A stretch of DNA of 64,000 nt, from positions 12,585-76,584 of the IMG/VR virus record IMGVR_UViG_3300032305_001732. The stretch is one strand, 5' to 3'. This document shows positions 12,088 through 43,848 of the stretch, piece after piece (position 1 is the first letter of the stretch; every line of letters starts with the position of its first letter). The position numbers were made by a program, and so were the translations under genes. Source of the DNA: a virus. Taxonomy: Duplodnaviria > Caudoviricetes. The notes beneath the pieces are model-generated. The model saw only the letters and a list, made by a program, of their open reading frames with translations, was not told where the DNA came from and made no database searches.

Positions 12088-12332
12088 CCGAATTTAACTG
12101 GGCAACCGCCGCACTAATTTTTATAACGTACGTCCTGATTGATATCTTATACGCGTGGTACATTATCGCGGTCGGTAAGCGCCAGGAAATACAGGCGTCT
12201 GTGGCTAGTTCGCTGTTGTATAGTCTTTCGGCTTATGGCGTGATCACGTATTCCCGAAATATCACGTATATTGCTTTTTTGGCTGCCGGCGCATTTCTAG
12301 GCACGTACATTATCGTAAAGCTCAAGAAATGA
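12084..12332 (+). CDS. Small membrane protein
   Basis: Three hydrophobic segments; ATGA overlap with the upstream stop. Confidence 0.65.
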   Translation: MTEFNWATAALIFITYVLIDILYAWYIIAVGKRQEIQASVASSLLYSLSAYGVITYSRNITYIAFLAAGAFLGTYIIVKLKK

Positions 12333-12556
12333 GCCAGCCGTTATCCCGGGAGGTATTACTGGCACACGGCAGGTGTTGCGGCGGAAGATGCCAAAATTGC
12401 CCGTATATCCCCAGGCATATTGGCGGCAGTAAGCAGATTCAGCCAGTGTGTTTTGTGTGCCAAGGCGAACTGCAGGAAATACGCGGAAAACTGATCTGCA
12501 AAGAGTGCCACACGATTAACGAAACATGCTGTGACGGCGGGCAGTGCGCTACATAA
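12329..12556 (+). CDS. Small Cys-rich zinc-binding protein (DUF5522-like CCG..C..CPY + zinc ribbon)
   Basis: GRCCGGRCQNCPY followed by CFVC...CKEC...CCDG. Confidence 0.65.
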   Translation: MSQPLSREVLLAHGRCCGGRCQNCPYIPRHIGGSKQIQPVCFVCQGELQEIRGKLICKECHTINETCCDGGQCAT

Positions 12557-12689
12557 GCCGCATAGAAAATGGCTATTCTGTACAATAAAGCGACGGTATT
12601 CGGTCTTGTTTTTGCTGAATCCCCGTTGGCGGCTTGTTATTGATTTGATATGCTGAGACTACATTCCGCACATTATGGAGATTTACACT

Positions 12690-13581: not shown

Positions 13582-14013
13582 GTGGCTGCGCCTGCTAAGA
13601 AGTTTGTCCTGAATGCTGAACAGCGCGTATACGTAGAGAAGTCTTGGGGTTACGAAGATTGGATTTGGAACGGGCGGTACTGCGGCAAAAAGTTGTTCAT
13701 TGAAAAAGGCAAAGAGTGCAGCTTTCATTATCATAAAGTCAAAGACGAGGTAATGTATCTCGAGCGCGGTAAGGTGCTGCTGACGTACGGCTGGGATTCA
13801 GACCCAGAGTTTGCGGCGCAGCTCACGCTCACTCCTGACATGGCTTTCCACATTCCTCCGGGCATGTGGCACCGTTTCAAGGGACTCGAGGAATCCATGC
13901 TTTTCGAGTTCAGCACCCACCACTCAGACAAGGACGTCGTGAGGTTGGGTGATAAAGAAGCCAAGGACGGCGCTGATGACGAAACAGACGAAGATAGCGA
14001 CGAAAATTCTTGA
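13582..14013 (+). CDS. Cupin-domain protein (mannose-6-phosphate isomerase / sugar isomerase-like)
   Basis: YCGKKL...SFHYHKVKDE and IPPGMWHRF cupin metal motifs; EFST.H.D.D. Confidence 0.8.
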   Translation: MAAPAKKFVLNAEQRVYVEKSWGYEDWIWNGRYCGKKLFIEKGKECSFHYHKVKDEVMYLERGKVLLTYGWDSDPEFAAQLTLTPDMAFHIPPGMWHRFKGLEESMLFEFSTHHSDKDVVRLGDKEAKDGADDETDEDSDENS

Positions 14014-16006
14014 GCGCGCTTACGCGCGCGAGTTAATTAAAGCAGCGGTCGGGCAGAATGACTTTGGCGTCGGGTCATATACGCCGCCGGGCCAGCCAAA
14101 GCCGATGAATTCGGGTATCACGCCCGCTGGCCGCGCATTAGCTGCTGCCCCGGCGGCTATCGGCAACGCAGTCGATGGCGCAGGTAGCGGTATATACGGC
14201 GGCTTTAATGCTGCCCTCGGCGCTCCGTTAAGCGGCATTGCTCGCGCTGGTCAGGGCATAGCGCACACTAATCACGTGCTCAATAATGACCCGCAGGCTC
14301 AAAATGCTTCAGCGGTCTGGGGTGCTGCAGCAAAGTCGCTTTGGTCAAACACAGTAGCCGGCGGTAAAGATTTACTCGAGGCTCCGTCACGCATGCTTGG
14401 CGCGCTTGACGGGCCCACGCATATGCAGACATTGCAAGCGCAGCAGGGCGCGCAGCTTAGTCCCGGCCAGCGGGATGTGTTTAATTTCGCTAATAATGCT
14501 GCGCAGAACGCTTCTACAGCTTTAGTTGCGGCTCCCGCATTTGGCGCTGTGGCAAAAGCTGTACCGCGGGCGGATAAAGCGCTGCAGTTGTACGCTTCTG
14601 GCGACGTCGCTCTCCGCAGCTTCGGCGTCGGCACGCCGGAGGTAAATCAAATTATAGCGAATACGATAGGCATGGGTAATCAGGCTCAAGCTGCAGAACC
14701 GCAAACCGCACCACAACCAGCGCCAGAGCCTACAGATGTTAACTATGATCAGCTGTCGACCGCTTTAAACAGCTTTCACCCTGAAATGCAAGACGCTGCC
14801 AACGAATTTGTGGCTGAGAATAACGCAGATCAAACAGAAGTAGCGCAAGATGCCGCTGCGACCCCAGCACAACAAGTTGCTGGTCCTGTTCCACCTCCGC
14901 CTACCGAACAGCCGGCGCCAGAACAGCAATCTGAAGCGGCTACGGATTACGCGGCTTTGACGCCTGCAAAGTGGTCGCTTCCTCCTAATGCCACCCCCGC
15001 GCAACAAAAAACAGTTGAGTACGCCACAAATACAATTAACGCTGCTCCGCCGCCTGTGCAGAAAGCTGTTAGTGATCTTGCAACTGATTCAACAAACGCA
15101 GAAGCAAAAGCGACTGTAGACGCCGCAGCTACTGAAAACATTGTGAGGTCCGTTACAGCGGATCCAGCTGCTACGGCAAACGGCGCTACAAATTTTGGCG
15201 AGCTTATTGGCGCCAAAATGGAGTGGTACAACAACCAAGACCCGCATACGCAGGGCTTGCTGGCGCTTGGGCTGTCTGCCGGCGTTATTGGACTTATTTC
15301 AGCTATTAATGGCGGCGGCTTGGGTAGTTTTCTTTCAATGGCGCTTGGTTTAGGCGGCGCTGGGCTTTTGGGCGCCGCAAGCGGCGCATTTGGCGAAGAC
15401 GGACAGCGCGCGATGGGGCAGGGCATGGCGTCAGTTGGGCGCATGATGGGGATGGATGTTCCTACGGATCCAGTACCTGTAGATCGGCTTGTGGGTGAAA
15501 ACGCTCCAGCGGCTATTCACGCTGACGTTATGAAATCTGCCCCGACCGACAAAGAAAAAATGCAGCTGCTCACTAACAAGACAATGCGAGACACTAAAGC
15601 GCAAAGCATACGCGCGGAACTGAAGCAACTAGACAGAGCAAAACAAATTGCGGGGATGCCGGAGCAAGCTGCAGTGCCTGTGCTTATGGCATTAGGTCAG
15701 GCGCAGGGCAAACCACTAACGACTGAAGTTGCTAAACAGGTTTATCGTAATGCTGTGCAAACCGCGCAAATGGCTAACGATAAAGACAGCCCTATGGGTA
15801 AGCAACTTGCTGAGGCGCAGCAGTTTTCTACAGATGCGGATAAATACGTAGCGCAGCAAGCTGGTAACTACATTGCACCATACGTAGCCCCTGCAGCGCC
15901 ATATGTGAATAAAGCTATACCTTATGTAAATCAAGCCTCGCAATATGCGGATCAAGCCTCGCAATTTCTTGCTCCATTTTTTCCCAAGGTGAATAATGCT
16001 AGATAA
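13976..16006 (+). CDS. Large Ala/Gln/Pro-rich putative internal virion (ejection) protein
   Basis: Leader ending LIKAA; a long Gly-rich hydrophobic segment (GLLALGLSAGVIG...LGLGGAGLLGAASG); no Cys in about 680 aa. Start codon uncertain. Confidence 0.55.
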   Translation: MTKQTKIATKILERAYARELIKAAVGQNDFGVGSYTPPGQPKPMNSGITPAGRALAAAPAAIGNAVDGAGSGIYGGFNAALGAPLSGIARAGQGIAHTNHVLNNDPQAQNASAVWGAAAKSLWSNTVAGGKDLLEAPSRMLGALDGPTHMQTLQAQQGAQLSPGQRDVFNFANNAAQNASTALVAAPAFGAVAKAVPRADKALQLYASGDVALRSFGVGTPEVNQIIANTIGMGNQAQAAEPQTAPQPAPEPTDVNYDQLSTALNSFHPEMQDAANEFVAENNADQTEVAQDAAATPAQQVAGPVPPPPTEQPAPEQQSEAATDYAALTPAKWSLPPNATPAQQKTVEYATNTINAAPPPVQKAVSDLATDSTNAEAKATVDAAATENIVRSVTADPAATANGATNFGELIGAKMEWYNNQDPHTQGLLALGLSAGVIGLISAINGGGLGSFLSMALGLGGAGLLGAASGAFGEDGQRAMGQGMASVGRMMGMDVPTDPVPVDRLVGENAPAAIHADVMKSAPTDKEKMQLLTNKTMRDTKAQSIRAELKQLDRAKQIAGMPEQAAVPVLMALGQAQGKPLTTEVAKQVYRNAVQTAQMANDKDSPMGKQLAEAQQFSTDADKYVAQQAGNYIAPYVAPAAPYVNKAIPYVNQASQYADQASQFLAPFFPKVNNAR

Positions 16007-18126: not shown

Positions 18127-20328
18127 TTGCCCCATACTTATCTGGTGCCAGCTATGCGAACCAAAGATTTAGGCGAATTTTTTTACACGACGTCTCTCAC
18201 GCAGTACGACGTATTGAAGTATTACGTCAACAAGATGTTCACGCCGGCTATGGACGTAGTGGCGTTGCTGCAGCTTATTGCGACGTACAAGCCTAAAACG
18301 TTTTTAGAGATCGGCACAAATCAAGGGCAGACCACACAAATTATCGCAGATAATTTTCCTAATATGCAGATCGTCACGTGCGATCCCGGCGATCAGCTGA
18401 CAGAGGAACAACGCAACGAGCACCAAATAGGTGAGCATTTACCACAGTGGGCAATCGGTGAGCGAGTAGCTGGCTATCCGAATGTGAAAATTATTAAAAA
18501 GTCGTTTGCTGATATCGATTGGGCTGGGCAAACCTTTGATTTTATTTTCATTGACGGCGACCATTCTTACGAAGCTGCGCTGCAAGATAGCTTGTTAGCC
18601 GCTAAGCTTGTAAATCATCCTGGCGTGCTGGCGTGGCACGATGTGGATAACGGCGCAGTTCCTGGCGTAAAAAAAGCGCTTGATGAGCTGACTGAATTAG
18701 CTCCGATTATTCACATTGAAAAATCAATGGTGGGGTATCGCGCTACTTGCCGGAGCACCGACTCGAAACGAGTTTTTACTCAGTTGCACAGAGACGGCGC
18801 TTGGGGTTCTGGCTGCGGCCCGGGCGCAACCTTAGATTTCTGCCAGCCGCTGATTAATTTTTTAGCGCCGCACTTTGAAGAACGGAACGTCAAGACACTA
18901 TGCGATTTAGGCTGCGGCGATTTTCAGTGGCAACCCGCGCTAGTAGCTAGTACCGGGGTTAAATACATTGGTTTAGATTGCATTGACGCACTAATAGAGC
19001 AGAACAGCGCGAAATATCTCCGGCCGGCGTACGAGTTTCGCTCTGTAGACTTTGCCGCAACCCCTGCAGCGCAATTACCAGAAGCAGATGTTTACCTTAT
19101 CAAAGACGTTTTGCAGCACTGGACGTCTGACGACGTAAATCAGTTTTTAGTGGAGCTGCTCATCGCGCGCCCATCGGCTGAAGTGCTTGTCATTAACTGC
19201 GTCAACCAAGAAAACGATAAACGCGACATTCAAACCGGCCAGTTTGAGCCGCTCAACAAAGCACACTATCCGCTAAATGCATTTAATGTCGAGGAGCTGT
19301 TTTCGTTTCACAGCAAAGTTGTTTACAGGATCAGTCCGCTTAAATCAAACGCGCCAATGCCGACTAGTGCGCCGGTTAAATTAAGTGCTGCACCGGTTGT
19401 GCTACCCGAGTTTTCTGCAGCTTTGATGCAGCCTGCCAATGTTGCTGCGTATCGGCCGCTTGTCGAATCTACATCTGCGCAGTGGTTTGCTGATGCTGCG
19501 TCCGCAGCTGCGCTAGTGCCAAAACCCAGCGATATGCGGGGGCGCGGCATTGTTATCTGTGCGGGCAATAATTATCTGCCTGCGGCGTGGGTGAATATCA
19601 AGATGCTGCGATATTTTCACTGCGACTTGCCAGTGGAGATTTGGCATCTTGGTCCAGAAGAAATTCCGGCCCGCGTGCGCCCGGGTTTCGAGGCGCTAGG
19701 CGCCACGTTTATAGACGGCCGCGAAATCCAAAAGACGTTTCCGCATCAACGGCTAAACGGCTGGGAACTTAAAGCTTACGCGCTGCTGCACACAAAGTTT
19801 GCTGAGGTAATGCTTCTTGATGCGGATAACATACCGCTTAAAAATGTCACACGTTTGTTTGATGAGATGTTTTACAAGCAACACGGCGCGTTGTTCTGGC
19901 CGGATCGCGGAACGTGGCCGCCGCATGCCAAGATTTGGGAGTTGACCGGCGTACCGTACAGACCCGAGTGTGAGTTTGAAACCGGGCAGATGGTTGTGGA
20001 TCGGTCACGCTGCTGGCCAGCTGTTGTGATGACTAATTGGATTAATGAAGAGAGCGTCTATTGGTATACGAAGATTCACGGTGACAAAGACACGTTCCGG
20101 CTAGGCTGGCGCGGCACTGGCACACAATACAACGCTATTCCGCACTCGTCGCTGGCGCCGTGGCCATTCTTTTATCAGAAAGACATTACCGGAGACGTGT
20201 TGTTCCAGCACGGCTGCAAATGGGCGGGCAGGCCAGAATCCTGCGAGTTGCAACAACAGTTTACGCCGGAATTTGTGCCGTATTATCCGCAGTGCGTTGG
20301 CTACATCGAAGAGTATTCCAAACTGTAA
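18127..20328 (+). CDS. Fusion: class I SAM methyltransferase (Methyltransf_24-like) + second SAM methyltransferase + GT71 (MNN-type) mannosyltransferase-like domain
   Basis: FLEIGT..G and FIFIDGDHSY; WGSGCGPG, LCDLGCGD and IKDVLQHW; GRGIVICAG, VMLLDADN, LFWPD, ETGQMVVD and HGDKDTFRLGW. Start uncertain. Confidence 0.8.
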   Translation: MPHTYLVPAMRTKDLGEFFYTTSLTQYDVLKYYVNKMFTPAMDVVALLQLIATYKPKTFLEIGTNQGQTTQIIADNFPNMQIVTCDPGDQLTEEQRNEHQIGEHLPQWAIGERVAGYPNVKIIKKSFADIDWAGQTFDFIFIDGDHSYEAALQDSLLAAKLVNHPGVLAWHDVDNGAVPGVKKALDELTELAPIIHIEKSMVGYRATCRSTDSKRVFTQLHRDGAWGSGCGPGATLDFCQPLINFLAPHFEERNVKTLCDLGCGDFQWQPALVASTGVKYIGLDCIDALIEQNSAKYLRPAYEFRSVDFAATPAAQLPEADVYLIKDVLQHWTSDDVNQFLVELLIARPSAEVLVINCVNQENDKRDIQTGQFEPLNKAHYPLNAFNVEELFSFHSKVVYRISPLKSNAPMPTSAPVKLSAAPVVLPEFSAALMQPANVAAYRPLVESTSAQWFADAASAAALVPKPSDMRGRGIVICAGNNYLPAAWVNIKMLRYFHCDLPVEIWHLGPEEIPARVRPGFEALGATFIDGREIQKTFPHQRLNGWELKAYALLHTKFAEVMLLDADNIPLKNVTRLFDEMFYKQHGALFWPDRGTWPPHAKIWELTGVPYRPECEFETGQMVVDRSRCWPAVVMTNWINEESVYWYTKIHGDKDTFRLGWRGTGTQYNAIPHSSLAPWPFFYQKDITGDVLFQHGCKWAGRPESCELQQQFTPEFVPYYPQCVGYIEEYSKL

Positions 20329-32312: not shown

Positions 32313-32723
32313 ATGGATATTACACCGCAAGAAGCGTTTAAGCTCGGGTTTTTAGCTCGATGCGCTGAAGAGCAACTTACCGGTAAAGCGCTAGACGCGC
32401 GGCTTGAAAAAGTCGCTGAGTTTAACAAGGGTGCGTTTCTTGGCGGCTTGGCTAAGTGGTCTCCAGTAGATCTAGGCGGGCTAGCAAGCAGCGGCTTACA
32501 GAATACTGTTGCCGGACTGACAGCGCTTTATTCTACGCCGTTTGCTGCGTCAATCCTTGGCGGCGGGGCGCTTGGATACGGTACGGCAAAGATGGTTGAA
32601 CCGCCTGTTCACGACGACGAAATTAAAGCGCAAGAAATTGCCGACACGTACAAGCTTTATGCTGAGAAGGCTAGGGCGCGTAAAAAGATGCGTAAATACC
32701 GTATGGGAAATAGCACGCTGTGA
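32313..32723 (+). CDS. Putative internal virion protein (glycine zipper)
   Basis: Leader EAFKLGF...EKVA; ILGGGALGYG helix; basic C-terminus. Confidence 0.55.
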   Translation: MDITPQEAFKLGFLARCAEEQLTGKALDARLEKVAEFNKGAFLGGLAKWSPVDLGGLASSGLQNTVAGLTALYSTPFAASILGGGALGYGTAKMVEPPVHDDEIKAQEIADTYKLYAEKARARKKMRKYRMGNSTL

Positions 32724-33073
32724 GCATTAAAAAATACTACAGTGATCATGGCGGTCCGGCTCACGGCAACGACAGATTGCACTGGCCGGGTACTATGGAC
32801 GGCTACCCTGTACGCGGACAGGGATTACCGCCGGATCTAAAAAAGGAAGAGCTAGAAAATCTTGACCTGCAGCTAGATTTCAAGAGCAAGATGTTTGAGC
32901 TTTGGGATCCGCAGCAAAAGGCTGAGTTTGACGACGTAAACGATAAAATAGTCAACGGCTGGTATCTATTACAGCGTCGCAACGACAACTGGGACGACAC
33001 CAACAAGCATTTTCGCGTCTGGCTCGAGTGGGCGCAGGTTTACGGAATGCTGCCGCCAAAGGCTAAGCCATGA
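32720..33073 (+). CDS. Hypothetical protein
   Basis: GTG start overlapping the upstream stop; ORF fits the operon. Confidence 0.6.
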   Translation: MSIKKYYSDHGGPAHGNDRLHWPGTMDGYPVRGQGLPPDLKKEELENLDLQLDFKSKMFELWDPQQKAEFDDVNDKIVNGWYLLQRRNDNWDDTNKHFRVWLEWAQVYGMLPPKAKP

Positions 33074-34062
33074 ACAAAAACGAAAAACAAGCAGACTGGC
33101 TGGACACATTAGGCACTACCGGCGGCGCTGTAACTTCAGCGCTGGCTAAAGCGCCGGGGCAGCTGTGGGATGCTGGCGCACAGGCCGCTAAAAACTTCTA
33201 CCGGCACGGTACGACTGTTGTAACCCCCGCGGTACAAAAAGCTTACGAGGCCGCGCAAAAAGCGAAAGCAACTGCAGCGAGCCAGAAAGCGCAGAGCGAC
33301 GCGCAAAATAAAATTACTACGGATAACGCAGCGGCGAAGCAGCACGGTAGTGACATATTGACTTATGGCCTCGGTGGTCTTGGTGCTGGCATTGTATTAA
33401 CGCGCCTGCATCACCTGCTGTCTGGCGCGAATAAGCAGCAGCCCAAATACACGAAATTTGGGCCTGGGCCGCAGGGCGTCGAAGACGACGAAAAGATTGC
33501 CAACGATGATTGGTACACAAAAATCGTTAGCGCGCCCGGCCATCTTATCCAGAATTTTAGCGATCCTGCTAATAGGGACGCCGCAAAAGCTGTACTTATG
33601 CTAGGCGGCACAATGGGCGGATTATACGGCGGCTACTCAATTATGTCGCAGTTGGCCGAGAAGAAACGCAAAGAAGAGCTTCAAGCGCGCGTAGAAGACG
33701 CAAAAAAAGAATATCAGCGCGCGCTTACAGGCCGCAAAGTTGCTGAGGATCTAGACACAGCATTTGCGCGTATTAGCAAACAAGCGGAAAACGGCAAATC
33801 CGAAATTGTTCGCGATACTGCATTGTGGCTGGCTGACACTGCTTTTGAGCCCATTCGCAGGAGTGGCGCCATGCCGTTATATGCTAGTGCTGTTGCAGGC
33901 TCTGGCTTACTGTCTGGCAAGCTGATGTATGACTGGGCTCGCGCGCGTAGTAAAGACAAGGCTCTAGCTGAGGCGCGCAAAGCCCGCGCCAGAATCGGCG
34001 GCGCTGCTCCTATCTACATTGATCCTGAGCAGTTAGCTGCAGTAAAACGCGTCGCTGACTGA
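33070..34062 (+). CDS. Putative internal virion polyprotein with three to four K-x-A-delimited glycine-zipper repeats
   Basis: EKQA, EKIA, RKVA and SKQA each precede or follow a G-rich helix plus basic stretch; no Cys. Confidence 0.6.
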   Translation: MNKNEKQADWLDTLGTTGGAVTSALAKAPGQLWDAGAQAAKNFYRHGTTVVTPAVQKAYEAAQKAKATAASQKAQSDAQNKITTDNAAAKQHGSDILTYGLGGLGAGIVLTRLHHLLSGANKQQPKYTKFGPGPQGVEDDEKIANDDWYTKIVSAPGHLIQNFSDPANRDAAKAVLMLGGTMGGLYGGYSIMSQLAEKKRKEELQARVEDAKKEYQRALTGRKVAEDLDTAFARISKQAENGKSEIVRDTALWLADTAFEPIRRSGAMPLYASAVAGSGLLSGKLMYDWARARSKDKALAEARKARARIGGAAPIYIDPEQLAAVKRVAD

Positions 34063-34087: not shown

Positions 34088-37000
34088 ATGCCAGACTTAA
34101 ATCCGTCCAATTCTATTCTCGGACCCACTACGCGCGAGTTCGGTGACGTTCAGTCACTGCGCAGCGGTATTTTTAATCAAGCGCAGCAGTCGGCGTTGCA
34201 AGTAGCGCCGTTTGAGCCTGGCGCTATTCGTACAGGCATTTTTAATGGCGTGCTGCAGCAAGCACAGAATATCAAGCCAATACAAAATGATCTTTATACG
34301 CTCAGCCTGCAAGACGTGAATTACGAAGGCCCCGAGAACTTTACAAAAAAAGATCACAAGCAGGCAGTGCTGTCACACGGCAGTCTGGCGCGTAAATTGC
34401 GTGGTACTTGGACGTTGACTGACAACGCGAGCGGCGAAGCAATATCGCAACGGCGCGCAACGATTGCGAATGTGCCCTATCTAACGCACGCCGGCACGTT
34501 TGTGAACAATGGCGTCGAGTACACGCTGGCCCACCAGATGCGTTTACGCCCAGGTGTGTATACGCGTGAAAAAGACAACGGCGAGCTGGAAGCGCATGTA
34601 AACGTCCTTCCAGGCAAAGGCCGCATGCATCGTTACTTTCTTGACCCGAAGACCGGCGTATTCAAGATTAATATCGGCCAGGCGCAGATTCCGCTTATGC
34701 CCATGCTTAAAGCAATGGGTGTTCCAGAGCAGGAAATTCGCAAGGCGTGGGGTAATGAATTAACCGCCGTAAACATGGAGAAGGGCGATGCAGGAACTCT
34801 GGACAAACTGTATAACCGGCTGGTTTATAAACCCGTTGCCGACCTTGATCCCGCTGGTAAGCAAAAAGCTATTGCGGAAGAATTCAGCAAGATGGAGCTG
34901 GACCCGGAAGTCACTAAAAGGACGCTCGGCGCGCCGATTAAAAACCTAACGCCAGACGCAGTGCTCGCAATCACTAAAAAGCTTATAGCAGTTAATCGTA
35001 AAGAAACTGATCCAGATGACCGCGACAGCATGGCATTCCAGCAAGTATTCGGCCCTGAAGACCTTATTGCCGAGCGCTTCACAAAAGACCGGAATACGCT
35101 GCGGCAATTGCTATGGAAAGCTACGGCAAAAAAGACATTAGATCACGTACCGACTGGCGTATTTAACAAAGCTATTACGGCTGCGCTTGTCGGCAGCGGG
35201 TTAGGCTCGAGTCTTGAAGAAATTAACCCTGCTGAAATCTTCGACCACCAGGCTCGAGTTACGCGGCTAGGCGAGGGCGGTATTGGTAGTCTCGATGCCG
35301 TGCCGGTTGAAAGCCGAAGCGTGCAGCCTAGTCACTTCGGATTTGTGGATTATCTCCGCACTCCTGAATCTGGCAAAGTTGGCGTTGATATGCGTTTTGC
35401 TCGCGGGGCGCTTAAGGGCGCTGACGGAAAGATTTACACGCAGGTAAAAAACCTACAGACGGGCGAGACCGAATATAAATCTCCACAGGACATTGCCGAT
35501 GCGCCGCTGGCGTTTCCCGGCGAAGATACGTCCGATCTGCCGACAGTCGCCGCTATTGTTAATGGCAAAATGAAATACGTACCGCGTGAGCAGGTGCAGT
35601 ACATGCTTCCCCACATGGACGCGTCTTTCTCTTCGCTGTCTAACATGGTGCCACTCAAATCCATGATGAAGGGCCATCGCGTCATCATGGGTAGCCGTAT
35701 GTTCACGCAAGCATTACCGCTCGTTGGCGCTGAGGCGCCTTTTATTCAATCGGGCGTCCACGGTACACCAGACCGATCGTACGAAGATGAGATGGGCAAG
35801 CACATGGGCGCAATCCATGCAGACGGCCCGGCCCAAGTTGTATCTGTAACGCCTGACGAGATCGTTCTTCGCGATAAGGACGGCAACAAACGTTCCGTCG
35901 ATCTTTACAACGATGCACCATTTAATCGTAAAACATTCTGGACGCAAACACCGACAGTTCAGCCTGGTGATACGGTAAAGCCGGGACAGTTACTGGCAAC
36001 GTCTAATTTTACTGACAAGCAAGGCACTGCTGCGCTTGGGTTAAATATGCGCGTAGGCTATCTGCCGTTTAAAGGCTACGTGTATGACGACGCTGTGGTT
36101 GTTTCGGAATCTGCGGCAAAGCGCCTGACGTCTGAGCATATGTATCAGCACGAAGCAGAAGCCGACGACAACAATCATATAGACAAGCGTAAGTTCGTTA
36201 GTTTGTTTCCGCAGGAATATGATCGCAAGACGCTAGACAACTTTGACGATAACGGCGTGGTTAAAAAGGGTACGACTGTTAAATACGGCGACCCGCTTAT
36301 TCTTGTCAGCAAAGCTAATGAAACAACATACGGGCAGGTATATCGCGGCAAGTCGGCTAACTTCGCAAACGACTCCGTGACCTGGAATCACCATTCGCCG
36401 GGTATAGTTACAGACGTGTCGCCGACTAAAAAAGGTTACAGCGTTGTAGTTAAAAATCAGGCCCAGATGGAAGTAGGCGATAAGCTTACAGGTCGCTTCG
36501 GCGATAAGGGCGTCGTGGCAGCTGTTATTCCTGACGATCAAATGCCGAAAGACACACAGGATCGTCCGCTTGAGGTTCTGGTGAGTCCGCTTGGTTTGGC
36601 TAGTCGTATTAATCCTTCGCAGCTTGTAGAAGCCGCGCTAGGTAAAGTTGCAGAGCGGACTGGTCAGCCTTACAAGATTCAAGACTTCGATAGTGCGCGG
36701 GATCTCGTGCAATTTGCAAAAGACGAATTGCGCAAAAACAACATGAACGATCTTGAGAGCGTCACAGACCCAGAAACTGGTCGCAAGATTAAAGACGTGC
36801 TTGTAGGCAATCGTTTCTTTATGAAATTGCACCATACAGCTGAGGCCAAAGCACAGGGGCGATCGACCGGCGGCTACACGGCTGAAGGCGCGCCGGCAAA
36901 GGGTGGTGAAACAGGCTCTAAGCGAATCGGCACACTCGATCTTGGCGCTTTATTATCTCACGGCGCTGGGCAGGTTATTCGGGACGCGAAGATGGTGCGC

Positions 37001-38539
37001 GGGCAGGCTAATCCTGAGTACTGGTCGCAATTCATGGCTGGCTATTCTGCGCCGTTACCTAAGATACCGCAGGTGTACCACAAGTTTGTTGAGCAGTTGC
37101 GCGGTGCTGGTATTAACACAGTACGCGAAGGTACTAAAACAAACATAATGGCGCTAACCAATAAGGACATTGACGAGCTTGCCGGCGATCGCGAGATTCA
37201 AAATGCAGAGACTGTTGATTGGAAATCTGGCATGCGTCCAAAGACGGGCGGACTGTTTGACGAGAAGTTAACAGGCGGCCACAACGGTAATCGCTGGTCT
37301 AAGATCACGTTGCACGAGCCTATGCCGAATCCTGTGATGGAAGAGCCTATTCGGCGTGTGCTTGGGCTTACAGAAAATAAATTCCGTAGTGTGCTGGCAG
37401 GGAAAGAGCAGTTGGGCGATAAAACTGGCCCGTCGGCTATTAAAGACGCGCTAAGCCGCATAGACCTACCGAAGGCTATGGAGCAGGCGCGCCAAGATAT
37501 TCATTCTGGGCGTAAAATGGCCCGTGATGCTGCTGTTCGCCGGTTAGCATTCTTAAAAAGTGCAGAAAAGACTGGTGTACATCCGGAAAATTGGATGCTG
37601 GACAAGATGCCGGTGATCCCGCCGGCGTTTAGACCCGTGTCGACGATGGGGCAAAAGAAGATGCCGCTCGTTGCTGACGCTAATTATCTCTATAAAGAGC
37701 TTCTAGACGCTAACGGAGCGCTAAAAGACTCGTCCGGCGTGTTGTCAGACACTGGCGACGAGCGTTTAGGGTTATACGACGCCATGAAAGGCGTTACAGG
37801 CCTCGGCGACCCAACACAATCAAAGAATGTAGAGCGCCGAGTACGTGGTTTTCTGTCGCAGATCTTTGGAAATTCGCCAAAATACGGCACAGTGCAGCGA
37901 AAACTGCTTAGCAGCACTGTAGACCTAGTCGGCCGCGCTGTTATTACGCCTAATCCCGACCTAGACATGGATCAGGTGGCGCTTCCGGAAGAAAAAGCCT
38001 GGGAAATATACAAGCCGTTTATTGTACGCGGCCTTGTGCGGCGTGGTTTGCCTCGTATGGAAGCTATCAACGCATTTGACGGCAAGAGTAAAGAAGCGCT
38101 AAGCGAACTTCAGACGCAAATGAACTCGCGGCCAATTATTATCAATCGCGCGCCCGTTTTACATCGTTATGGTATGATGGCCTTTTATCCAAGGCTGACA
38201 AAAAACAAAGTTATGGAGGTTAGTCCGCTTGTAACCAAGGGTTTCGGCGCCGACTTCGACGGTGACGCGATGCAATATCACGTCCCAAGCACGGATGACG
38301 CTGCCAAAGAAGCTGTTGCGAAGATGCTGCCAAGTAAAAACTTGTTTGCGGCTTCTACATTCAAAGCGCACTACACTCCAGTAGCGGAATATCAGTCAGG
38401 GCTGTATGTTGCTTCTAATAGAATCAACAAACAAGCGCAGCCGAAGGTATTTAGAAGTAAACAAGACGCAATTGCGGCATATCGACGTGGCGACATTGAG
38501 GTTGACACGCCAGTACATATCGTAGAGAGCGACGATTAA
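34088..38539 (+). CDS. rpoB: Multisubunit RNA polymerase: beta fused to the N-terminal/catalytic half of beta'
   Basis: beta motifs RVTRLGEGG, TPES, GDKLTGRFGDKG, PLGLASRIN and MKLHH..KAQGRSTG; then beta' motifs GGLFDEK, PVIPPAFRP, KLLSSTVDLVGRAVI, INRAPVLHR and the catalytic GADFDGD (38246-38266). Confidence 0.93.
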   Translation: MPDLNPSNSILGPTTREFGDVQSLRSGIFNQAQQSALQVAPFEPGAIRTGIFNGVLQQAQNIKPIQNDLYTLSLQDVNYEGPENFTKKDHKQAVLSHGSLARKLRGTWTLTDNASGEAISQRRATIANVPYLTHAGTFVNNGVEYTLAHQMRLRPGVYTREKDNGELEAHVNVLPGKGRMHRYFLDPKTGVFKINIGQAQIPLMPMLKAMGVPEQEIRKAWGNELTAVNMEKGDAGTLDKLYNRLVYKPVADLDPAGKQKAIAEEFSKMELDPEVTKRTLGAPIKNLTPDAVLAITKKLIAVNRKETDPDDRDSMAFQQVFGPEDLIAERFTKDRNTLRQLLWKATAKKTLDHVPTGVFNKAITAALVGSGLGSSLEEINPAEIFDHQARVTRLGEGGIGSLDAVPVESRSVQPSHFGFVDYLRTPESGKVGVDMRFARGALKGADGKIYTQVKNLQTGETEYKSPQDIADAPLAFPGEDTSDLPTVAAIVNGKMKYVPREQVQYMLPHMDASFSSLSNMVPLKSMMKGHRVIMGSRMFTQALPLVGAEAPFIQSGVHGTPDRSYEDEMGKHMGAIHADGPAQVVSVTPDEIVLRDKDGNKRSVDLYNDAPFNRKTFWTQTPTVQPGDTVKPGQLLATSNFTDKQGTAALGLNMRVGYLPFKGYVYDDAVVVSESAAKRLTSEHMYQHEAEADDNNHIDKRKFVSLFPQEYDRKTLDNFDDNGVVKKGTTVKYGDPLILVSKANETTYGQVYRGKSANFANDSVTWNHHSPGIVTDVSPTKKGYSVVVKNQAQMEVGDKLTGRFGDKGVVAAVIPDDQMPKDTQDRPLEVLVSPLGLASRINPSQLVEAALGKVAERTGQPYKIQDFDSARDLVQFAKDELRKNNMNDLESVTDPETGRKIKDVLVGNRFFMKLHHTAEAKAQGRSTGGYTAEGAPAKGGETGSKRIGTLDLGALLSHGAGQVIRDAKMVRGQANPEYWSQFMAGYSAPLPKIPQVYHKFVEQLRGAGINTVREGTKTNIMALTNKDIDELAGDREIQNAETVDWKSGMRPKTGGLFDEKLTGGHNGNRWSKITLHEPMPNPVMEEPIRRVLGLTENKFRSVLAGKEQLGDKTGPSAIKDALSRIDLPKAMEQARQDIHSGRKMARDAAVRRLAFLKSAEKTGVHPENWMLDKMPVIPPAFRPVSTMGQKKMPLVADANYLYKELLDANGALKDSSGVLSDTGDERLGLYDAMKGVTGLGDPTQSKNVERRVRGFLSQIFGNSPKYGTVQRKLLSSTVDLVGRAVITPNPDLDMDQVALPEEKAWEIYKPFIVRGLVRRGLPRMEAINAFDGKSKEALSELQTQMNSRPIIINRAPVLHRYGMMAFYPRLTKNKVMEVSPLVTKGFGADFDGDAMQYHVPSTDDAAKEAVAKMLPSKNLFAASTFKAHYTPVAEYQSGLYVASNRINKQAQPKVFRSKQDAIAAYRRGDIEVDTPVHIVESDD

Positions 38540-38551
38540 ACAGGGAGGTTT

Positions 38552-39274
38552 GTGATGGCTATTGTTAATGCAGAGCTGCTTCGTTTAGCCAAGCAGCGGT
38601 TCACTAAAGCCGCTGTTGTAATGCCGGGCATGGACCCAGCCGCTGGCGGTGCGCCCCCCGCTGACCCGGCCGCTATGGGCGCCCCTCCCGCCGACCCGGC
38701 TGCTATGGGCGGCGCTCCGGCGCCAATGCCGGCTATGGATCCAAACGCCATGGCGGCGCAAGCTGCCCCGCCAATGCCTCCAGCCGGTGGTCCACCCGCA
38801 GCCGCGCCGCAGCAAAAGCTTAAGCCGGAACAAATGATGCAGATGATCGACTATCGTCTGTATAACATGCAACAGCAATTAACTGCGATCATGAATGCCT
38901 TGGGCGTAAAACTTCCGCCCGAGGCAATTGTGCTGCCCCCCGGATCGACCTCCGCGCCCGCGCCAGAAACGGCGCTCCCCGGCGGTCCCGGCGCTCCGGC
39001 AGCCCCTGCGGCAGCTCCTGCTGCTGGTGGCGATCCCGCCGCCGCGCAGCTGCCGCAGGACGTATACGCGGGGCCCGATCCTACGCAGAACGGCGGCGCG
39101 GTGTCGCCGATCGCGCCAGCAAAGGCCGCGTGGTGGCAGCAACCAGAGCCGGCGAAGGCTGCTTCTTATATTGGCGATCCGGTGCCGGCGACTGAAGAAG
39201 TTCCGGCTGACTTACAGGTTTCAGCAAACGCCACGAGCTTTTTGCTGAGGAGCCTGTCGCAAAATGCGCGTTAA
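38552..39274 (+). CDS. Pro/Ala-rich low-complexity protein with a short central helical domain
   Basis: DPAA(G/M)GAPPA repeats at about 38633-38720; LKPEQMMQMIDYRLYNMQQQL core; TKAA and two AKAA motifs; no Cys. Confidence 0.6.
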   Translation: MMAIVNAELLRLAKQRFTKAAVVMPGMDPAAGGAPPADPAAMGAPPADPAAMGGAPAPMPAMDPNAMAAQAAPPMPPAGGPPAAAPQQKLKPEQMMQMIDYRLYNMQQQLTAIMNALGVKLPPEAIVLPPGSTSAPAPETALPGGPGAPAAPAAAPAAGGDPAAAQLPQDVYAGPDPTQNGGAVSPIAPAKAAWWQQPEPAKAASYIGDPVPATEEVPADLQVSANATSFLLRSLSQNAR

Positions 39275-39506
39275 AACGCAACATTTCCTGCAGCCAGCTA
39301 TTGCTGACGCGCATAGCGTGATAGTTGAAAACGCTGCAGGTCAGCCGATATTCATAGCCATTGAAGGCGATGGCGGCAGTGTAATTGCTGCACAAGCCGG
39401 CGACCCGGACTTTGCCGGAATGCTTAAAATGCTTGGCGTAGAGAAAACGACAATGGTTTACAATATGAAACCAAAGTCGATCGAGGAAATGAAGGCGCTG
39501 TTTTAA
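39264..39506 (+). CDS. Small hypothetical protein between the RNAP genes
   Basis: 80 aa ORF coupled to both neighbours. Confidence 0.6.
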   Translation: MRVKTQHFLQPAIADAHSVIVENAAGQPIFIAIEGDGGSVIAAQAGDPDFAGMLKMLGVEKTTMVYNMKPKSIEEMKALF

Positions 39507-39507
39507 T

Positions 39508-41367
39508 ATGCTGAAAACAACGCTCGGCCAACTTTTGATTAACAACGCGCTTCCGCAAGACCTGCGGGACCATAACCGCGTTTTAAACAAAAAGAACATG
39601 ATCGCGTTGGCTACCGAGATAGCGCAAAAATATCCTGACAAGTACCGCGAAATAACAAAGCGATTACAGGACATCGGCAACGAGACGTCCTACACGACTA
39701 ACGGCTTGTCTGTAGGCCTAGACGCTATTCGCCCGGCTGTGTCTGCAATTAAAAAGCAGCACGAGGTTAGGCAGCAGTTGCGTGGAATTCTCGCCGACCG
39801 CACGCTGGATGACAAAACACGCAATATGCGCATTCTCGAGATGACGTCGAAGGCGCAGCGCGAGCTTGTAGACTCTGTGTACAAAGACGCAGAGGAGCAA
39901 GACAATCCCTTATTCCACCAAGTATCAGGCGGGGTTAAAGGCAATAAGTTTCAGTTAAACAGCATCATTGGCGCTGACCTGCAATACGTCGATCACAAAA
40001 ACGAGCCAATTCCAATTCCGGTAATGCGCGGCTACAGCCAGGGTCTGCGACCTGTTGAATATTTCGCTGGCGCGTTCGGCACACGAAAAGGGCTAATTGA
40101 CTTAAAGACAGCTACGTCCGACGCAGGTTTCTTTGCCAAGCAACTTGCGCAGATGAACCACAGACTGCTCGTGACGGCTGACGACGACGAGATCGCTGAT
40201 GACACGCGCGGGTTTCCGTCTGATGTTGATGACGTAGATAACGAAGGCGCATTGTTAGCTAGAGGCGTCGGACCGTATAAGCGCAACACGACACTAACGC
40301 CGAAGATACTAAAAGATCTTAAATCGCTAGGTATTAAAGACATTCTTGTACGCAGCCCGACTGTTGGCGGTCCGGAAGACGGCGGCGTATACGCTAAAGA
40401 CGTAGGCTATCGCGAGAAGAATAGACTACCGCCGACTGGCGATTATGTCGGTATCGCGGCAGCTCAGGCGCTTGCGGAACCTGTTACGCAGTCGCAGATT
40501 AGCTCAAAGCATTCTGGCGGCGTCGGTGGCGCTGGCGCTATTTCTGGTTTTAAGGCGCTCAACGCGCTCGTGCAGGTGCCAGAGAAATACCCAAATGGTG
40601 CTACGCATTCATCTATTGACGGCGCAGTGCAAGAAATCCGGCCGGCCGCGCAGGGTGGCAGTTATGTAGTAATTAACGGCCAAGACCATTACGTACCTAC
40701 TGGCGTGGCAGTGACAGTCAAACGTGGCGACAATGTTGAAGCCGGTGACGTTGTATCTGAGGGTATGCCAAGTCCAAAAGAAATAGTCGCGCACAAAGGC
40801 ATTGGCGAAGGTCGTCGATATTTTGTGCAGGCTATGAAGCAAGTTATGGGCAACAGCGGCATTACAGCGCATCGCCGTAATATTGAGCTGCTTTCGCGCG
40901 GGCTTATTAATCACGTACGCATGACAGACGAATACGGTGATTATTTACCTGACGACGTAGTGCCGTACTCAATGATTGAACGTAACTGGCAGCCGCGTGC
41001 AGGAAGCGTCCGCGCAGCGCCAAAAAGCCTGCAAGGACATTACCTCGAAAAACCGACTCTGCATTATTCTGTTGGAACAAAAATCGGTAAATCTGTCGTA
41101 GACAATTTAAACAAATACGGCATTACAGACGTCGAAGCGCATAAAGAGCCGCCGCCGTTTGAACCAGAGATGGTGCGCGGCATGGCTAATATCTCGAAAG
41201 ATCCTGACTGGATGACTCGCATGCTCGGGTCATATCAGCAGAAAAGTTTACTGCAAGCCACACACCGCGGCGGCGTTAGCGATACGGCAGGTACTAGTTT
41301 TGTACCGACGCTTGCCCGCGGAGAAACATTTGGTTTAGGCGGCGCGACAAGTGGCTGGAAACCGTAA
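39508..41367 (+). CDS. rpoC: RNA polymerase beta' C-terminal half
   Basis: Bridge helix GTRKGLIDLKTATSDAGFFAKQL; trigger loop AAQALAEPVTQSQISSKHSGG; VKRGDNVEAGDVVSEG; HRRNIELL. Confidence 0.9.
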   Translation: MLKTTLGQLLINNALPQDLRDHNRVLNKKNMIALATEIAQKYPDKYREITKRLQDIGNETSYTTNGLSVGLDAIRPAVSAIKKQHEVRQQLRGILADRTLDDKTRNMRILEMTSKAQRELVDSVYKDAEEQDNPLFHQVSGGVKGNKFQLNSIIGADLQYVDHKNEPIPIPVMRGYSQGLRPVEYFAGAFGTRKGLIDLKTATSDAGFFAKQLAQMNHRLLVTADDDEIADDTRGFPSDVDDVDNEGALLARGVGPYKRNTTLTPKILKDLKSLGIKDILVRSPTVGGPEDGGVYAKDVGYREKNRLPPTGDYVGIAAAQALAEPVTQSQISSKHSGGVGGAGAISGFKALNALVQVPEKYPNGATHSSIDGAVQEIRPAAQGGSYVVINGQDHYVPTGVAVTVKRGDNVEAGDVVSEGMPSPKEIVAHKGIGEGRRYFVQAMKQVMGNSGITAHRRNIELLSRGLINHVRMTDEYGDYLPDDVVPYSMIERNWQPRAGSVRAAPKSLQGHYLEKPTLHYSVGTKIGKSVVDNLNKYGITDVEAHKEPPPFEPEMVRGMANISKDPDWMTRMLGSYQQKSLLQATHRGGVSDTAGTSFVPTLARGETFGLGGATSGWKP

Positions 41368-41454
41368 TTTTCAATAAGAGTGGATTATTCAGCTAAATCC
41401 AGGTAAATTAAACATACCGAACGATTAAGTCGAATAAGCCGCATGGAGGTGGCC

Positions 41455-43848
41455 GTGGGTACGAATTACAGCAAAAATGTTTCCAATAAGCTCACTGCAA
41501 TGAGTAACTACGCCCGTAAAGGCGTAAAACTCGCAGCCCTCGGCGGCAAAGGTGATGACGTCCCGTTTGAGCAGGCGTTTAGCAATTTAGCTCACGCGTA
41601 TCTGCAAGACAAAGCTCCGGGTCTCATGGATCACGAGGTAGGCTTTCAGCTCCTCGACCGCAACGCCGAAAACACAAAGGCGGTCGGCGTGTTTGCATTT
41701 AAGGTTGGGTCATTGTGGCTTTACGCGCCGATGTTCTTTTTAAACGGCGACCTAAAGGGCCACGAGCTCCTGTATTTAAAGAATCAGGATATGTTCGTGC
41801 CGCTTAAGGAAAACTGGATTAACTACCTCGTTAATCGTAAGCCGAGCATTTTAGGCCAAAACATCGACCGCAATTTATCGCAATTCGGCCAACGACAGCC
41901 TGACTTCACGCAGATGAGCCGCTCGCCGTCAAAGTTTGGCTCCGCCCAACCTACGCTCAAGGAAATGATTTCAGACGTTCTTCCGGCATTTGCCAAGAGC
42001 GCCACAATGAATACTTCCCGCGTTTTTGAGGACATGGGCAAGAAGCTCAACCTCGCGCAGTTCCTTAAAGAAGCCGAGCTGACAACGATTGACTTTCTTG
42101 TAAAGTCTTGCCAGTACGCCCCGCAGTTAGCCACTGCGCTCGAGGAATTCCACGGTCTCGACATTATTAAAGATGCTATTGCCGCCGCCACAGCTCGCGG
42201 TACTGAGACAAAGATCGCCAGCGTGTTGTCTGAGTCGCCCAAAACGCCTGCAGCTGAGAAGAGCCTGAAGATTATCGACGGCGTTACGATGCAAACAAAG
42301 CTGCCGCCTGAAGCCACAGAAGAAGATCAAGAAAAACTTCTGCAAGACGGCCTGCTTATCCTCGACCAGCGCGACAGCGATAACGTTTCAATTCCGTACA
42401 ACATCCAGGTGGAAAAGAAGCTGTACAACCCCACCGAAAGCGGACTGTACGAGATTCTGGTCAAGCCGGGCAATACCGAGCGCTGCTATGTTGCCGTGTA
42501 TCCGCAAGGCTCTGCCAAGCGCGAAAAAATGGTGACGGTTGTGCGCGTTGACGGTAAGCCTGATTGGTTAAATACACGCGCTAATAACGTATGGGCTTTA
42601 ACCCGCATAGAGGGCGAAGAGTTCGACACGTGGTTCGACAAGCTGCCCGAAGCCACTAGTGTTCCGGGTAAATCTGCGCGTTACATGGCTATCAGCAAGC
42701 GCGGCGATACGACTGTGCCTTTCCGAGTGTTGCGCGAGTATGGCGACAGCGGTAAAGACTCCACAGTGTACGAAGTGCACATGGAAGATCACTGCCATCA
42801 CCGCATGCCAGGTGATATCTCTGGTTGCTGCTATACAGACCCGCTGAATTACGATAAATATCGTGACGGCGTGCGCATTCATTTAAACGGTAAAAAAGGC
42901 ACAAGCTTACGTTCCAGCATGGGCGATATTTTTGTGCCGGAAGGTTTTAAGCTGCTCAAGGTCAGCAAGGGCGAAGACGATACAGATTCGTCGGAAGGCC
43001 AGGATAGTTGCGCCTGCGGCGAGAGCGAGACGCCGCCGCTCATGCCGGGCACGCTGCTTGATGCTCAATTAGAGCTTATGGGTAAAACTGCCGCACTTAT
43101 TGTGCGGCACACGGGTACGGATGTCATTGTTAATGACGTTCGGCAAGGCTCTGAGAAGAGCGCGTTAATTCACCTCGTTGGCAGCCACGGCTTGCGGGAG
43201 GGCGCTGCCCGTGAAATTATTAAGAAGGCCTCAGCAAAGGGCATGTTTGAATGCCGCGTTAAATACGCTGATCCATATGGGGCGCCAATGATGGTTAACG
43301 ACGCGCCAGGGTCGCCGTCTATGCCAGAGCCGACAATGGGCGGCGAAACTGTTCTTAATACACGCGTGCCGACACAGCTCGGTATTGATATCGGCGTGCC
43401 AGTTCCGGGCATGAGCGCTATGCGTACAGACAGGTCAGTTTACAACCCGAACCCTGACTTTGATTCGACGCCGATGAGTCGCATGCAAGACAAAGATTTG
43501 CAGAGCGTACTTGACGCGGCTAGTTCAGGACAGCGCGAAGTATTTGATACAGCCATGATCGGCAGCATGCTTCGCGCTGTGCGCGACGATTCGCTTGTTG
43601 ATCGCTACATGGGCGAACTGACAAAGGGTCTTGATAAGCTCGGCCGCATTCTGTTTATGTTCTACTGGCACGGTGATCGCTTCGCTGAGCGTTACGGCAA
43701 GTCAGATATGCCGGAATTGGAAGATTCGCTGCGCAACGCTTTTGAAATGCTCGGCGACGTAATTCTCTTCCTGAAGCAGAAGACTATCGAGCCGTATCCT
43801 GATACTGCGGCGCAAGACGTGGATCTTGGCGCTGTTGCAAATTCTTAA
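41455..43848 (+). CDS. Large hypothetical (probably head-associated) protein
   Basis: GGAGG SD + GTG start; leader ending VKLAA; internal AKSA and VKYA; no family recognised. Confidence 0.6.
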   Translation: MGTNYSKNVSNKLTAMSNYARKGVKLAALGGKGDDVPFEQAFSNLAHAYLQDKAPGLMDHEVGFQLLDRNAENTKAVGVFAFKVGSLWLYAPMFFLNGDLKGHELLYLKNQDMFVPLKENWINYLVNRKPSILGQNIDRNLSQFGQRQPDFTQMSRSPSKFGSAQPTLKEMISDVLPAFAKSATMNTSRVFEDMGKKLNLAQFLKEAELTTIDFLVKSCQYAPQLATALEEFHGLDIIKDAIAAATARGTETKIASVLSESPKTPAAEKSLKIIDGVTMQTKLPPEATEEDQEKLLQDGLLILDQRDSDNVSIPYNIQVEKKLYNPTESGLYEILVKPGNTERCYVAVYPQGSAKREKMVTVVRVDGKPDWLNTRANNVWALTRIEGEEFDTWFDKLPEATSVPGKSARYMAISKRGDTTVPFRVLREYGDSGKDSTVYEVHMEDHCHHRMPGDISGCCYTDPLNYDKYRDGVRIHLNGKKGTSLRSSMGDIFVPEGFKLLKVSKGEDDTDSSEGQDSCACGESETPPLMPGTLLDAQLELMGKTAALIVRHTGTDVIVNDVRQGSEKSALIHLVGSHGLREGAAREIIKKASAKGMFECRVKYADPYGAPMMVNDAPGSPSMPEPTMGGETVLNTRVPTQLGIDIGVPVPGMSAMRTDRSVYNPNPDFDSTPMSRMQDKDLQSVLDAASSGQREVFDTAMIGSMLRAVRDDSLVDRYMGELTKGLDKLGRILFMFYWHGDRFAERYGKSDMPELEDSLRNAFEMLGDVILFLKQKTIEPYPDTAAQDVDLGAVANS

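Follow-up and report, generated by a model that had tools for sequence, protein, structure and literature searches.

Why would a phage encode an RNA polymerase (RNAP) of bacterial type that contains no cysteine at all? The question is raised by a 64,000-nucleotide stretch of a virus of the Caudoviricetes (positions 12,585 to 76,584 of IMG/VR record IMGVR_UViG_3300032305_001732; hereafter the window), in which two RNAP subunit genes and two small open reading frames (ORFs) between them occupy positions 34088-41367. An earlier note, made from the sequence alone, had taken the missing cysteines as the signature of an enzyme that is packaged in the virion and injected into the host. Our analysis places the two subunits within a conserved block of six cysteine-free genes, and suggests that the polymerase is probably packaged, ejected with the DNA and used for early transcription, with that route the probable cause of the cysteine loss.

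A two-chain RNA polymerase without cysteine

The large subunit gene (34088-38539, plus strand, 1483 amino acids (aa)) matched the Pfam domains Rpb2_2, Rpb2_3 and Rpb2_6 (E = 3e-51), followed by Rpb1_1 and Rpb1_2 (E = 2e-23). The small subunit gene (39508-41367, plus strand, 619 aa) matched Rpb1_5 (E = 8e-23), the region of the bridge helix and trigger loop. This domain order means that the larger protein comprises a whole beta subunit (residues 1-1016; 34088-37135) and the N-terminal half of beta' (37136-38539), and that the smaller one supplies the remaining, C-terminal half of beta'. The presence of beta and beta' domains bears out the earlier identification of a bacterial-type two-barrel enzyme. 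Identity to Salmonella RpoB and RpoC was 25-30%, spanning beta 54-1336 and beta' 160-540 in the large subunit and beta' 697-1286 in the small one, and all catalytic motifs are common to the phage and host enzymes, with the phage beta' split after the catalytic domain. GRFGDKG at residue 802 (host counterpart GRHGNKG) and GADFDGD at residues 1387-1393, which holds the catalytic Mg-binding DFDGD (residues 1389-1393; 38252-38266), are both intact, so the enzyme looks active. The region is thus predicted to encode a catalytically complete bacterial-type RNAP in two chains, beta/beta'-N and beta'-C. No alpha or omega subunit was recognised.

The beta to beta' junction is a direct, in-frame, head-to-tail fusion that reads ...GAGINTVREG/TKTN...GLFDEKLTGGHNGNRW. 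Here GAGINTVREG, the counterpart of host SLGINIELEDE at the C-terminus of beta, leads straight into the start of beta', where GLFDEKLTGG corresponds to host GLFCARIFGP; the zinc-ribbon loop (host C70-C88) has been excised. Natural beta-beta' fusions occur in Helicobacter, and beta' is split as rpoC1/rpoC2 in cyanobacteria. Our literature searches turned up no paper on the fused architecture seen here and none on a cysteine-free multisubunit RNAP.

Neither subunit contains a cysteine (0 in 2102 aa), as the earlier note had read from the translations, and the count was also zero in the 240-aa and 80-aa ORFs between them. Two further ORFs immediately upstream share the trait, which makes six adjacent genes and 2869 aa without cysteine. 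At the 1.0% cysteine content of all window ORFs, the probability of finding none would be 7e-10 over the two subunits and 3e-13 over all six genes of the block. Counts of TGT and TGC codons per reading frame, with the coding frame first, were 0/64/65 for the large subunit gene and 0/24/24 for that of the small subunit; the codons are absent in frame yet frequent in the other two frames, so the absence is at the protein level. Sulphur economy was considered as the cause and rejected because methionine is not depleted in the RNAP (2.95% vs 2.43% elsewhere).

The cysteines that a cellular enzyme would hold have been replaced position by position. Salmonella beta and beta' contain 7 and 15 cysteines, a total of 22 that makes the earlier expectation of about 20 a fair one, and all 22 positions are substituted or deleted in the phage enzyme. 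The three motif replacements described previously were recovered in the alignment: GRxCPxETPE (host GRVCPIETPE) became GFVDYLRTPE (C559 to D421), QCGLP became QVALP (C366 to V1297), and PLVCAAYNADFDGD became PLVTKGFGADFDGD (C454 to T1383). Both beta' zinc sites (C70/72/85/88 and C814/888/895/898) are lost, the first with the ribbon loop at the fusion junction and the second, at 40186-40401 on the plus strand, through substitution of C814/C888/C895/C898 by D/G/Y/D. The loss sets the polymerase apart from cellular enzymes but leaves it within the fold.

The cysteine content of the window ORFs had a bimodal distribution, with one cysteine in the combined 6385 aa of 17 ORFs (each of at least 100 aa) and an average of 1.33% in the other 40. 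A DNA methyltransferase (18127-20328) lies in the stretch of normal cysteine levels at 18-32 kb. A 75-aa ORF at 12329-12556 held 11 cysteines (14.7%) among otherwise cysteine-poor neighbours.

Conservation of the cysteine-free state

Counting cysteines in homologues had been named in the earlier note as a check, and normal levels were not what we found. Cysteine was absent from 110 of the 120 large-subunit homologues closest to the query (71-97% identity), and six more had one. The remaining four had 5-15 cysteines, were 150-345 aa longer and carried their cysteines inside insertions. Each of these insertions begins with a cysteine exactly at the break, and three of them (in P0012, P0059 and P0115) end in GN followed by serine, as in DYLRTPE|CYD...FWCGN|SGKVGVDM; that of P0035 ends differently. 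Ends of the form Cys1...GN|Ser are marks of inteins with serine, not cysteine, as the +1 nucleophile. The RTPE|SG junctions that we checked read this way, so the spliced protein stays cysteine-free.

More distant homologues gave the same picture. In 150 cluster representatives at 42-60% identity, cysteine made up 0.13% of the residues aligned to the query and 1.9% of those in insertions. Representatives free of inteins nearly all had no cysteine, with exceptions that include P0182 (4) and P0221 (7), and a Pfam search of one representative returned Intein_splicing and LAGLIDADG domains. Of 120 small-subunit homologues, 115 had no cysteine, and the other five were forms of ~1000 aa with a LAGLIDADG insertion (intein-bearing homologues P0288-P0290, P0312 and P0380). 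Each of the six block genes had 0-1 cysteines in 15 IMG/VR relatives, and the flanking genes kept theirs (w30387, 8; w31422, 6; w41443, 8-10; w47095, 14). The cysteine-free block therefore has sharp, conserved edges, and the trait is under selection.

The survey for inteins in the large subunit covered P0012, P0035, P0059, P0115 and P0121-P0270, and showed extensive intein invasion of the RNAP genes in this clade. Insertions of at least 100 aa, one to five per protein, were present in 121 of the 150 representatives, with proteins of up to 3350 aa, in a set that is biased towards the longest members of each cluster. Insertion hot spots were RTPE|SG (residue 428), residues ~800, ~840 and ~1260, and the surroundings of DFDGD (1390-1400).

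Proposed packaging and ejection, and the alternatives

What selects against cysteine in this enzyme? In the account that we consider the most probable, the polymerase would be made late and packaged into the capsid, possibly together with an SNF2-family helicase, a phage sigma factor and the four small proteins of the cysteine-free block. It would then enter the host along with the DNA and transcribe the first phage genes without the host RNAP. A packaged protein would spend a long time outside the reducing cytoplasm and would have to cross the tail and the cell envelope, probably unfolded, without forming disulfides or carrying bound zinc; selection on this route would have removed all free thiols and both beta' zinc sites.

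The evidence closest to packaging comes from a cultured phage. The nearest cultured relatives were Salmonella phage Arash (OQ632216) and Vibrio phages D69, D148 and D181, in all of which beta is fused to beta'-N and beta'-C is separate; alignments covered 95% of the large subunit at 31-32% identity. Arash gp206 (1525 aa, beta and beta'-N) and gp216 (606 aa, beta'-C) have an architecture identical to that of the enzyme described here, with 31.7% identity between the large subunits (residues 64-1478) and 24.6% between the small ones (5-611). In mass spectrometry (MS) of Arash virions, the large subunit Gp206 was the most detected protein, with 128 unique peptides and 3516 spectra, and the small subunit Gp216 ranked fifth with 40 and 1210 (PMC10585845). 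The same dataset gives 38 unique peptides and 1148 spectra for the helicase Gp217, 36 and 1149 for Gp218, 32 and 877 for the portal, and 30 and 1333 for the capsid protein, and the sigma factor Gp10 was also found in virions (PMC10585845). By our own arithmetic, from which the inference is rough, Gp206, Gp216, Gp217 and Gp218 were alike per residue at ~1.9-2.4 spectra/aa. Arash proteins with at least 15 unique peptides had 0.27% cysteine, compared with 1.53% in the early/metabolic region.

Gene order links the two phages as well. The window from 34 to 61 kb is collinear with Arash gp206-gp235, a segment that includes capsid and tail genes, and homologues of gp218, gp222, gp233, gp234 and gp235 follow the RNAP in the Arash order. 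The RNAP genes thus head a collinear structural module. The modules differ in detail: Arash has its portal gene just upstream and nine genes between the subunits, whereas here two cysteine-free ORFs lie upstream and two between. The large subunits of Arash and D69 are almost cysteine-free (1-2 cysteines), and Arash gp216 and D69 264 have only four, which are those of the second beta' zinc site, CxxC included, in place of the D/G/Y/D found here. Since Arash, for which there is packaging evidence, keeps one zinc site, the clade studied here has gone further.

Cysteine-free virion polymerases have a precedent in the Schitoviridae. The earlier note had cited the N4 virion RNAP as lacking cysteine, a lack attributed to passage through the periplasm, and we found no cysteine in the 3500 aa of N4 gp50 and none in gp51 or gp52. 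According to the DEV paper, cysteine is suppressed throughout the ejection operon of the Schitoviridae, and the periplasm hypothesis is cited there (PMC11445570). Throughout that family (N4 gp50-52, DEV gp71-73), as here, the enzyme and its adjacent partners are cysteine-free and are encoded in a virion gene block, and the proposed role, early transcription after ejection, is the same. The N4 enzyme, in contrast, is a single-subunit T7-like protein of 3500 aa that forms part of the ejectosome of a podovirus and has no homology to the enzyme described here. The latter is a two-chain, bacterial-type double-psi-barrel polymerase that probably uses sigma, and the cultured relative of its phage is a myovirus. 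Our Pfam searches found only Rpb1 and Rpb2 domains at this locus and no T7-like single-subunit domain, so the likeness to N4 is functional, not familial. The suppression shared by adjacent genes in both systems is correlative and, as phiKZ shows, not universal.

Each phiKZ particle packages ~10 copies of the virion RNAP (Gp80/149/178/180), which is injected to carry out early transcription (PMC10612078). Like the enzyme here, those of phiKZ- and AR9-like phages are multisubunit polymerases of the beta/beta' type. They differ in being divided into 4-5 highly diverged polypeptides, in lacking sigma, in having a second, non-virion set and in keeping cysteine, whereas here beta and beta'-N are fused, the bacterial Pfam match is strong, a single set was seen and cysteine is absent. 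The 4-5-way split, the lack of sigma and the paired non-virion set that characterise the phiKZ type were thus not what we found. We counted 16 cysteines in the 2614 aa of the phiKZ virion RNAP (0.61%), and its non-virion RNAP had 1.26%.

Several points weigh against packaging and ejection as the explanation. The Arash virion proteome is the sole experimental foothold, and it concerns a relative at 31% identity, outside the clade. That study called 116 proteins virion-associated, among them ribonucleotide reductase, ligase and primase; its authors allow for carry-over, and caesium chloride (CsCl) is not mentioned in the text (PMC10585845). Because phiKZ keeps 16 cysteines and Arash and D69 a four-cysteine zinc site, zero cysteine is not required for packaging. 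The many cysteine-poor proteins of the window (the 17 ORFs with a single cysteine among them) mean that the trait may mark a virion protein rather than an ejected one. We found no capsid-targeting signal on the large subunit and no extension beyond bacterial beta, and family and look-alike searches and structure modelling gave no assignable function for the small ORFs near the RNAP. To call the missing cysteines a signature was accordingly too strong: zero cysteine is a good, not a necessary, indicator of packaging, and what it signals may be any exposure beyond the cytoplasm, not specifically transit through the periplasm. The proposed adaptation to encapsidation and ejection is plausible and stands in part, favoured indirectly by the Arash virion data, the synteny, the clade-wide cysteine-free state and the normal cysteine levels of beta' homologues encoded in replication modules.

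Of the other explanations, the one that survives best is that this is an ordinary intracellular RNAP, never part of the virion, that is made from host-transcribed genes and serves middle or late transcription, its cysteines and zinc having been lost under some other pressure. Oxidative or thiol-reactive stress in the infected cell, zinc scarcity and escape from a host factor that targets cysteine or zinc sites are among the pressures that could be named, and with any of them we consider the explanation unlikely. It gains from the position of the packaging data outside the clade, from the very inclusive Arash list, which may hold abundant carry-over, from the phiKZ demonstration that packaging is possible with cysteine, and from the lack of a recognisable capsid-targeting leader. 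It fits poorly with the place of the genes in a structural module collinear with that of Arash, unlike the beta' homologues of Rhizobium phage RHph_Y65 and Vibrio phage Va2, which lie beside replication/DNA polymerase genes and have 1.4% cysteine. Carry-over is also hard to reconcile with peptide counts for the Arash subunits that resemble those of true structural proteins, when ligase and primase had only 2 unique peptides each (PMC10585845). Cysteine level tracks virion status in Arash, and a pressure specific to the enzyme would leave four unrelated cysteine-free neighbours with sharp boundaries unexplained.

A second alternative, which we rate slightly lower again, accepts that the RNAP is packaged and ascribes the cysteine loss to the generally oxidising extracellular milieu and not to passage through the periplasm, with functional ejection optional. 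The low cysteine content of Arash virion proteins as a class agrees with it, as do the absence of cysteine from N4 coat protein gp56 and gp57, the bimodal distribution in the window and the tolerance of zinc-ligated cysteines in Arash and D69. However, 2869 aa without cysteine would be unlikely even at the virion-class level of ~0.2-0.3% (P ~3e-3 at 0.2%). A putative structural protein of 801 aa beside the block keeps eight conserved cysteines, so not all virion proteins are constrained, and complete suppression in the Schitoviridae is specific to ejected proteins (PMC11445570). Chance or nucleotide bias, for which nothing speaks beyond the generally low frequency of cysteine in proteins, is refuted by the probabilities given above (P ~7e-10 to 3e-13), by the TGY codons frequent in both non-coding frames and missing from the coding one, and by a cysteine-free state that is held in hundreds of homologues down to 42% identity.

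Associated factors and neighbouring genes

If the enzyme is packaged and ejected, with what does it travel? No sigma domain was found in the window or in the 76.6-kb source record. Two relatives (G001 and G002) encode a 269-281-aa protein without cysteine that matched Sigma70_r3 (37 bits, above the cut-off) and r4, with no region-2 match. The two genes (G002:C1:16688-17497, minus strand, equivalent to L029:1189-1998; G001:C1:48972-49817, minus strand, equivalent to L030:1473-2318) encode proteins 67% identical to each other and lie ~38 kb downstream of the RNAP, a distance that falls past the end of the present contig. Of the two sigma factors encoded by Arash, the virion one (gp10) has no cysteine. 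The sigma-like gene of the relatives and the Arash factors together suggest that the enzyme is probably sigma-dependent, unlike the phiKZ type (PMC7824862).

The second candidate companion is the SNF2-family helicase (9066-11681, plus strand, 871 aa; Pfam SNF2-rel_dom and Helicase_C), which is 32% identical to Arash gp217 and has a single cysteine (residue 728). Its gene lies ~25 kb upstream of the RNAP here and is adjacent to it in Arash, and we regard the protein as a probable RNAP partner. A helicase of the SNF2 type is likewise linked to RNAP genes in phiKZ/AR9-like phages (PMC7824862).

By Pfam, a single beta and a single beta'-C are encoded in the complete genome of Arash, as in that of D69. 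No second RNAP set was found in Arash, in D69 or in three partial records of the clade (~70% of the genome), in searches with Pfam models that would miss very diverged subunits like those of phiKZ. The source record has a CheckV completeness of 37%, which for 76.6 kb implies a phage genome of ~200 kb, and contigs of 200-208 kb carry close homologues; the phage belongs to a large clade of uncultured phages of about that size. It is quite possible, though somewhat less likely than not, that a complete sigma-dependent, cysteine- and zinc-free machine of bacterial type, made up of fused beta/beta'-N, beta'-C, sigma and the SNF2 helicase, is packaged and ejected as the sole RNAP of this clade.

Virion RNAPs are known in three forms: the single-subunit N4 enzyme, the fragmented, sigma-less phiKZ enzyme and exotic fusions (P23-45, crAss-like phages). 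If the proposed role is right, the enzyme described here would add a further form with recognisably host-like beta and beta', one that probably uses sigma and would be the phage's only RNAP. A cellular-type RNAP can evidently dispense with both conserved zinc sites and with any cysteine, which bears on RNAP folding and assembly. With this enzyme, the cysteine rule published for the Schitoviridae reaches a second polymerase and phage lineage unrelated to the first, which makes it a stronger means of predicting, from sequence alone, which proteins of metagenomic phages are packaged or ejected. If the machine outlined above is indeed ejected, cysteine suppression could mark the 'ejectome' of uncultured phages, and the four small ORFs of the block would belong to it.

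These four ORFs are all on the plus strand and matched no Pfam or PHROG family. The block opens with a conserved, Trp-rich 117-aa ORF (32720-33073), which was 63-87% identical in 14 relatives and had 0-1 cysteines there; AlphaFold2 on a shallow alignment gave an unusable model (predicted local distance difference test score (pLDDT) 42). The overlapping 330-aa ORF (33070-34062) has Gly-rich, moderately hydrophobic segments and was cysteine-free in 13 relatives also. That it is a membrane-active ejection protein is speculation, and a transmembrane scan of the block gave no strict segment. Between the subunit genes, the 240-aa ORF (38552-39274) is Pro/Ala/Met-rich and of low complexity, with 47-74% identity and 0-1 cysteines across 15 relatives, and the 80-aa ORF (39264-39506) had no cysteine in 14 relatives.

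At the downstream edge of the block lies the 801-aa protein (41443-43848, plus strand), which has weak similarity to Arash gp218. Its eight conserved cysteines include the invariant clusters PCCYTDP and GSCGCGES, which could be a metal or disulfide site; the Arash counterpart has one cysteine. AlphaFold2 on a shallow alignment again gave an unusable model (pLDDT 37), and Atlas look-alike searches with the 801-aa and 330-aa proteins returned nothing usable.

We also looked for signs of capsid targeting and maturation. Residues 60-217 of the large subunit align to host beta 54-220, which leaves no N-terminal extension or leader, and no prohead-protease site was found on the RNAP subunits, where the first K-x-A stands at residue 91 inside a conserved motif. 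A K-x-A 19-31 residues from the N-terminus was present in the proteins at 9066-11681 (the helicase, AKLA|AEF), 13949-16006, 38552-39274 and 41443-43848, the other sites being IKAA|VGQ, TKAA|VVM and VKLA|ALGG; these fit the idea of a leader removed by a prohead protease.

PHROGs and Pfam scans of ~40 window ORFs did not locate portal, capsid or protease genes and returned a methyltransferase, the SNF2 helicase, tail-fibre-like and lectin-like domains, and almost nothing else. None of our results identified the neighbours of the RNAP as the internal head proteins supposed in the earlier note. A nucleotide search against cultured phages gave no match, and a promoter and terminator scan of 27-45 kb found sites no more common than in shuffled sequence. 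In two relatives (L007 and L008), ~690 extra bases (14440-15130) separate the large RNAP gene from the homologue of the 240-aa ORF, and this stretch is probably an inserted gene.

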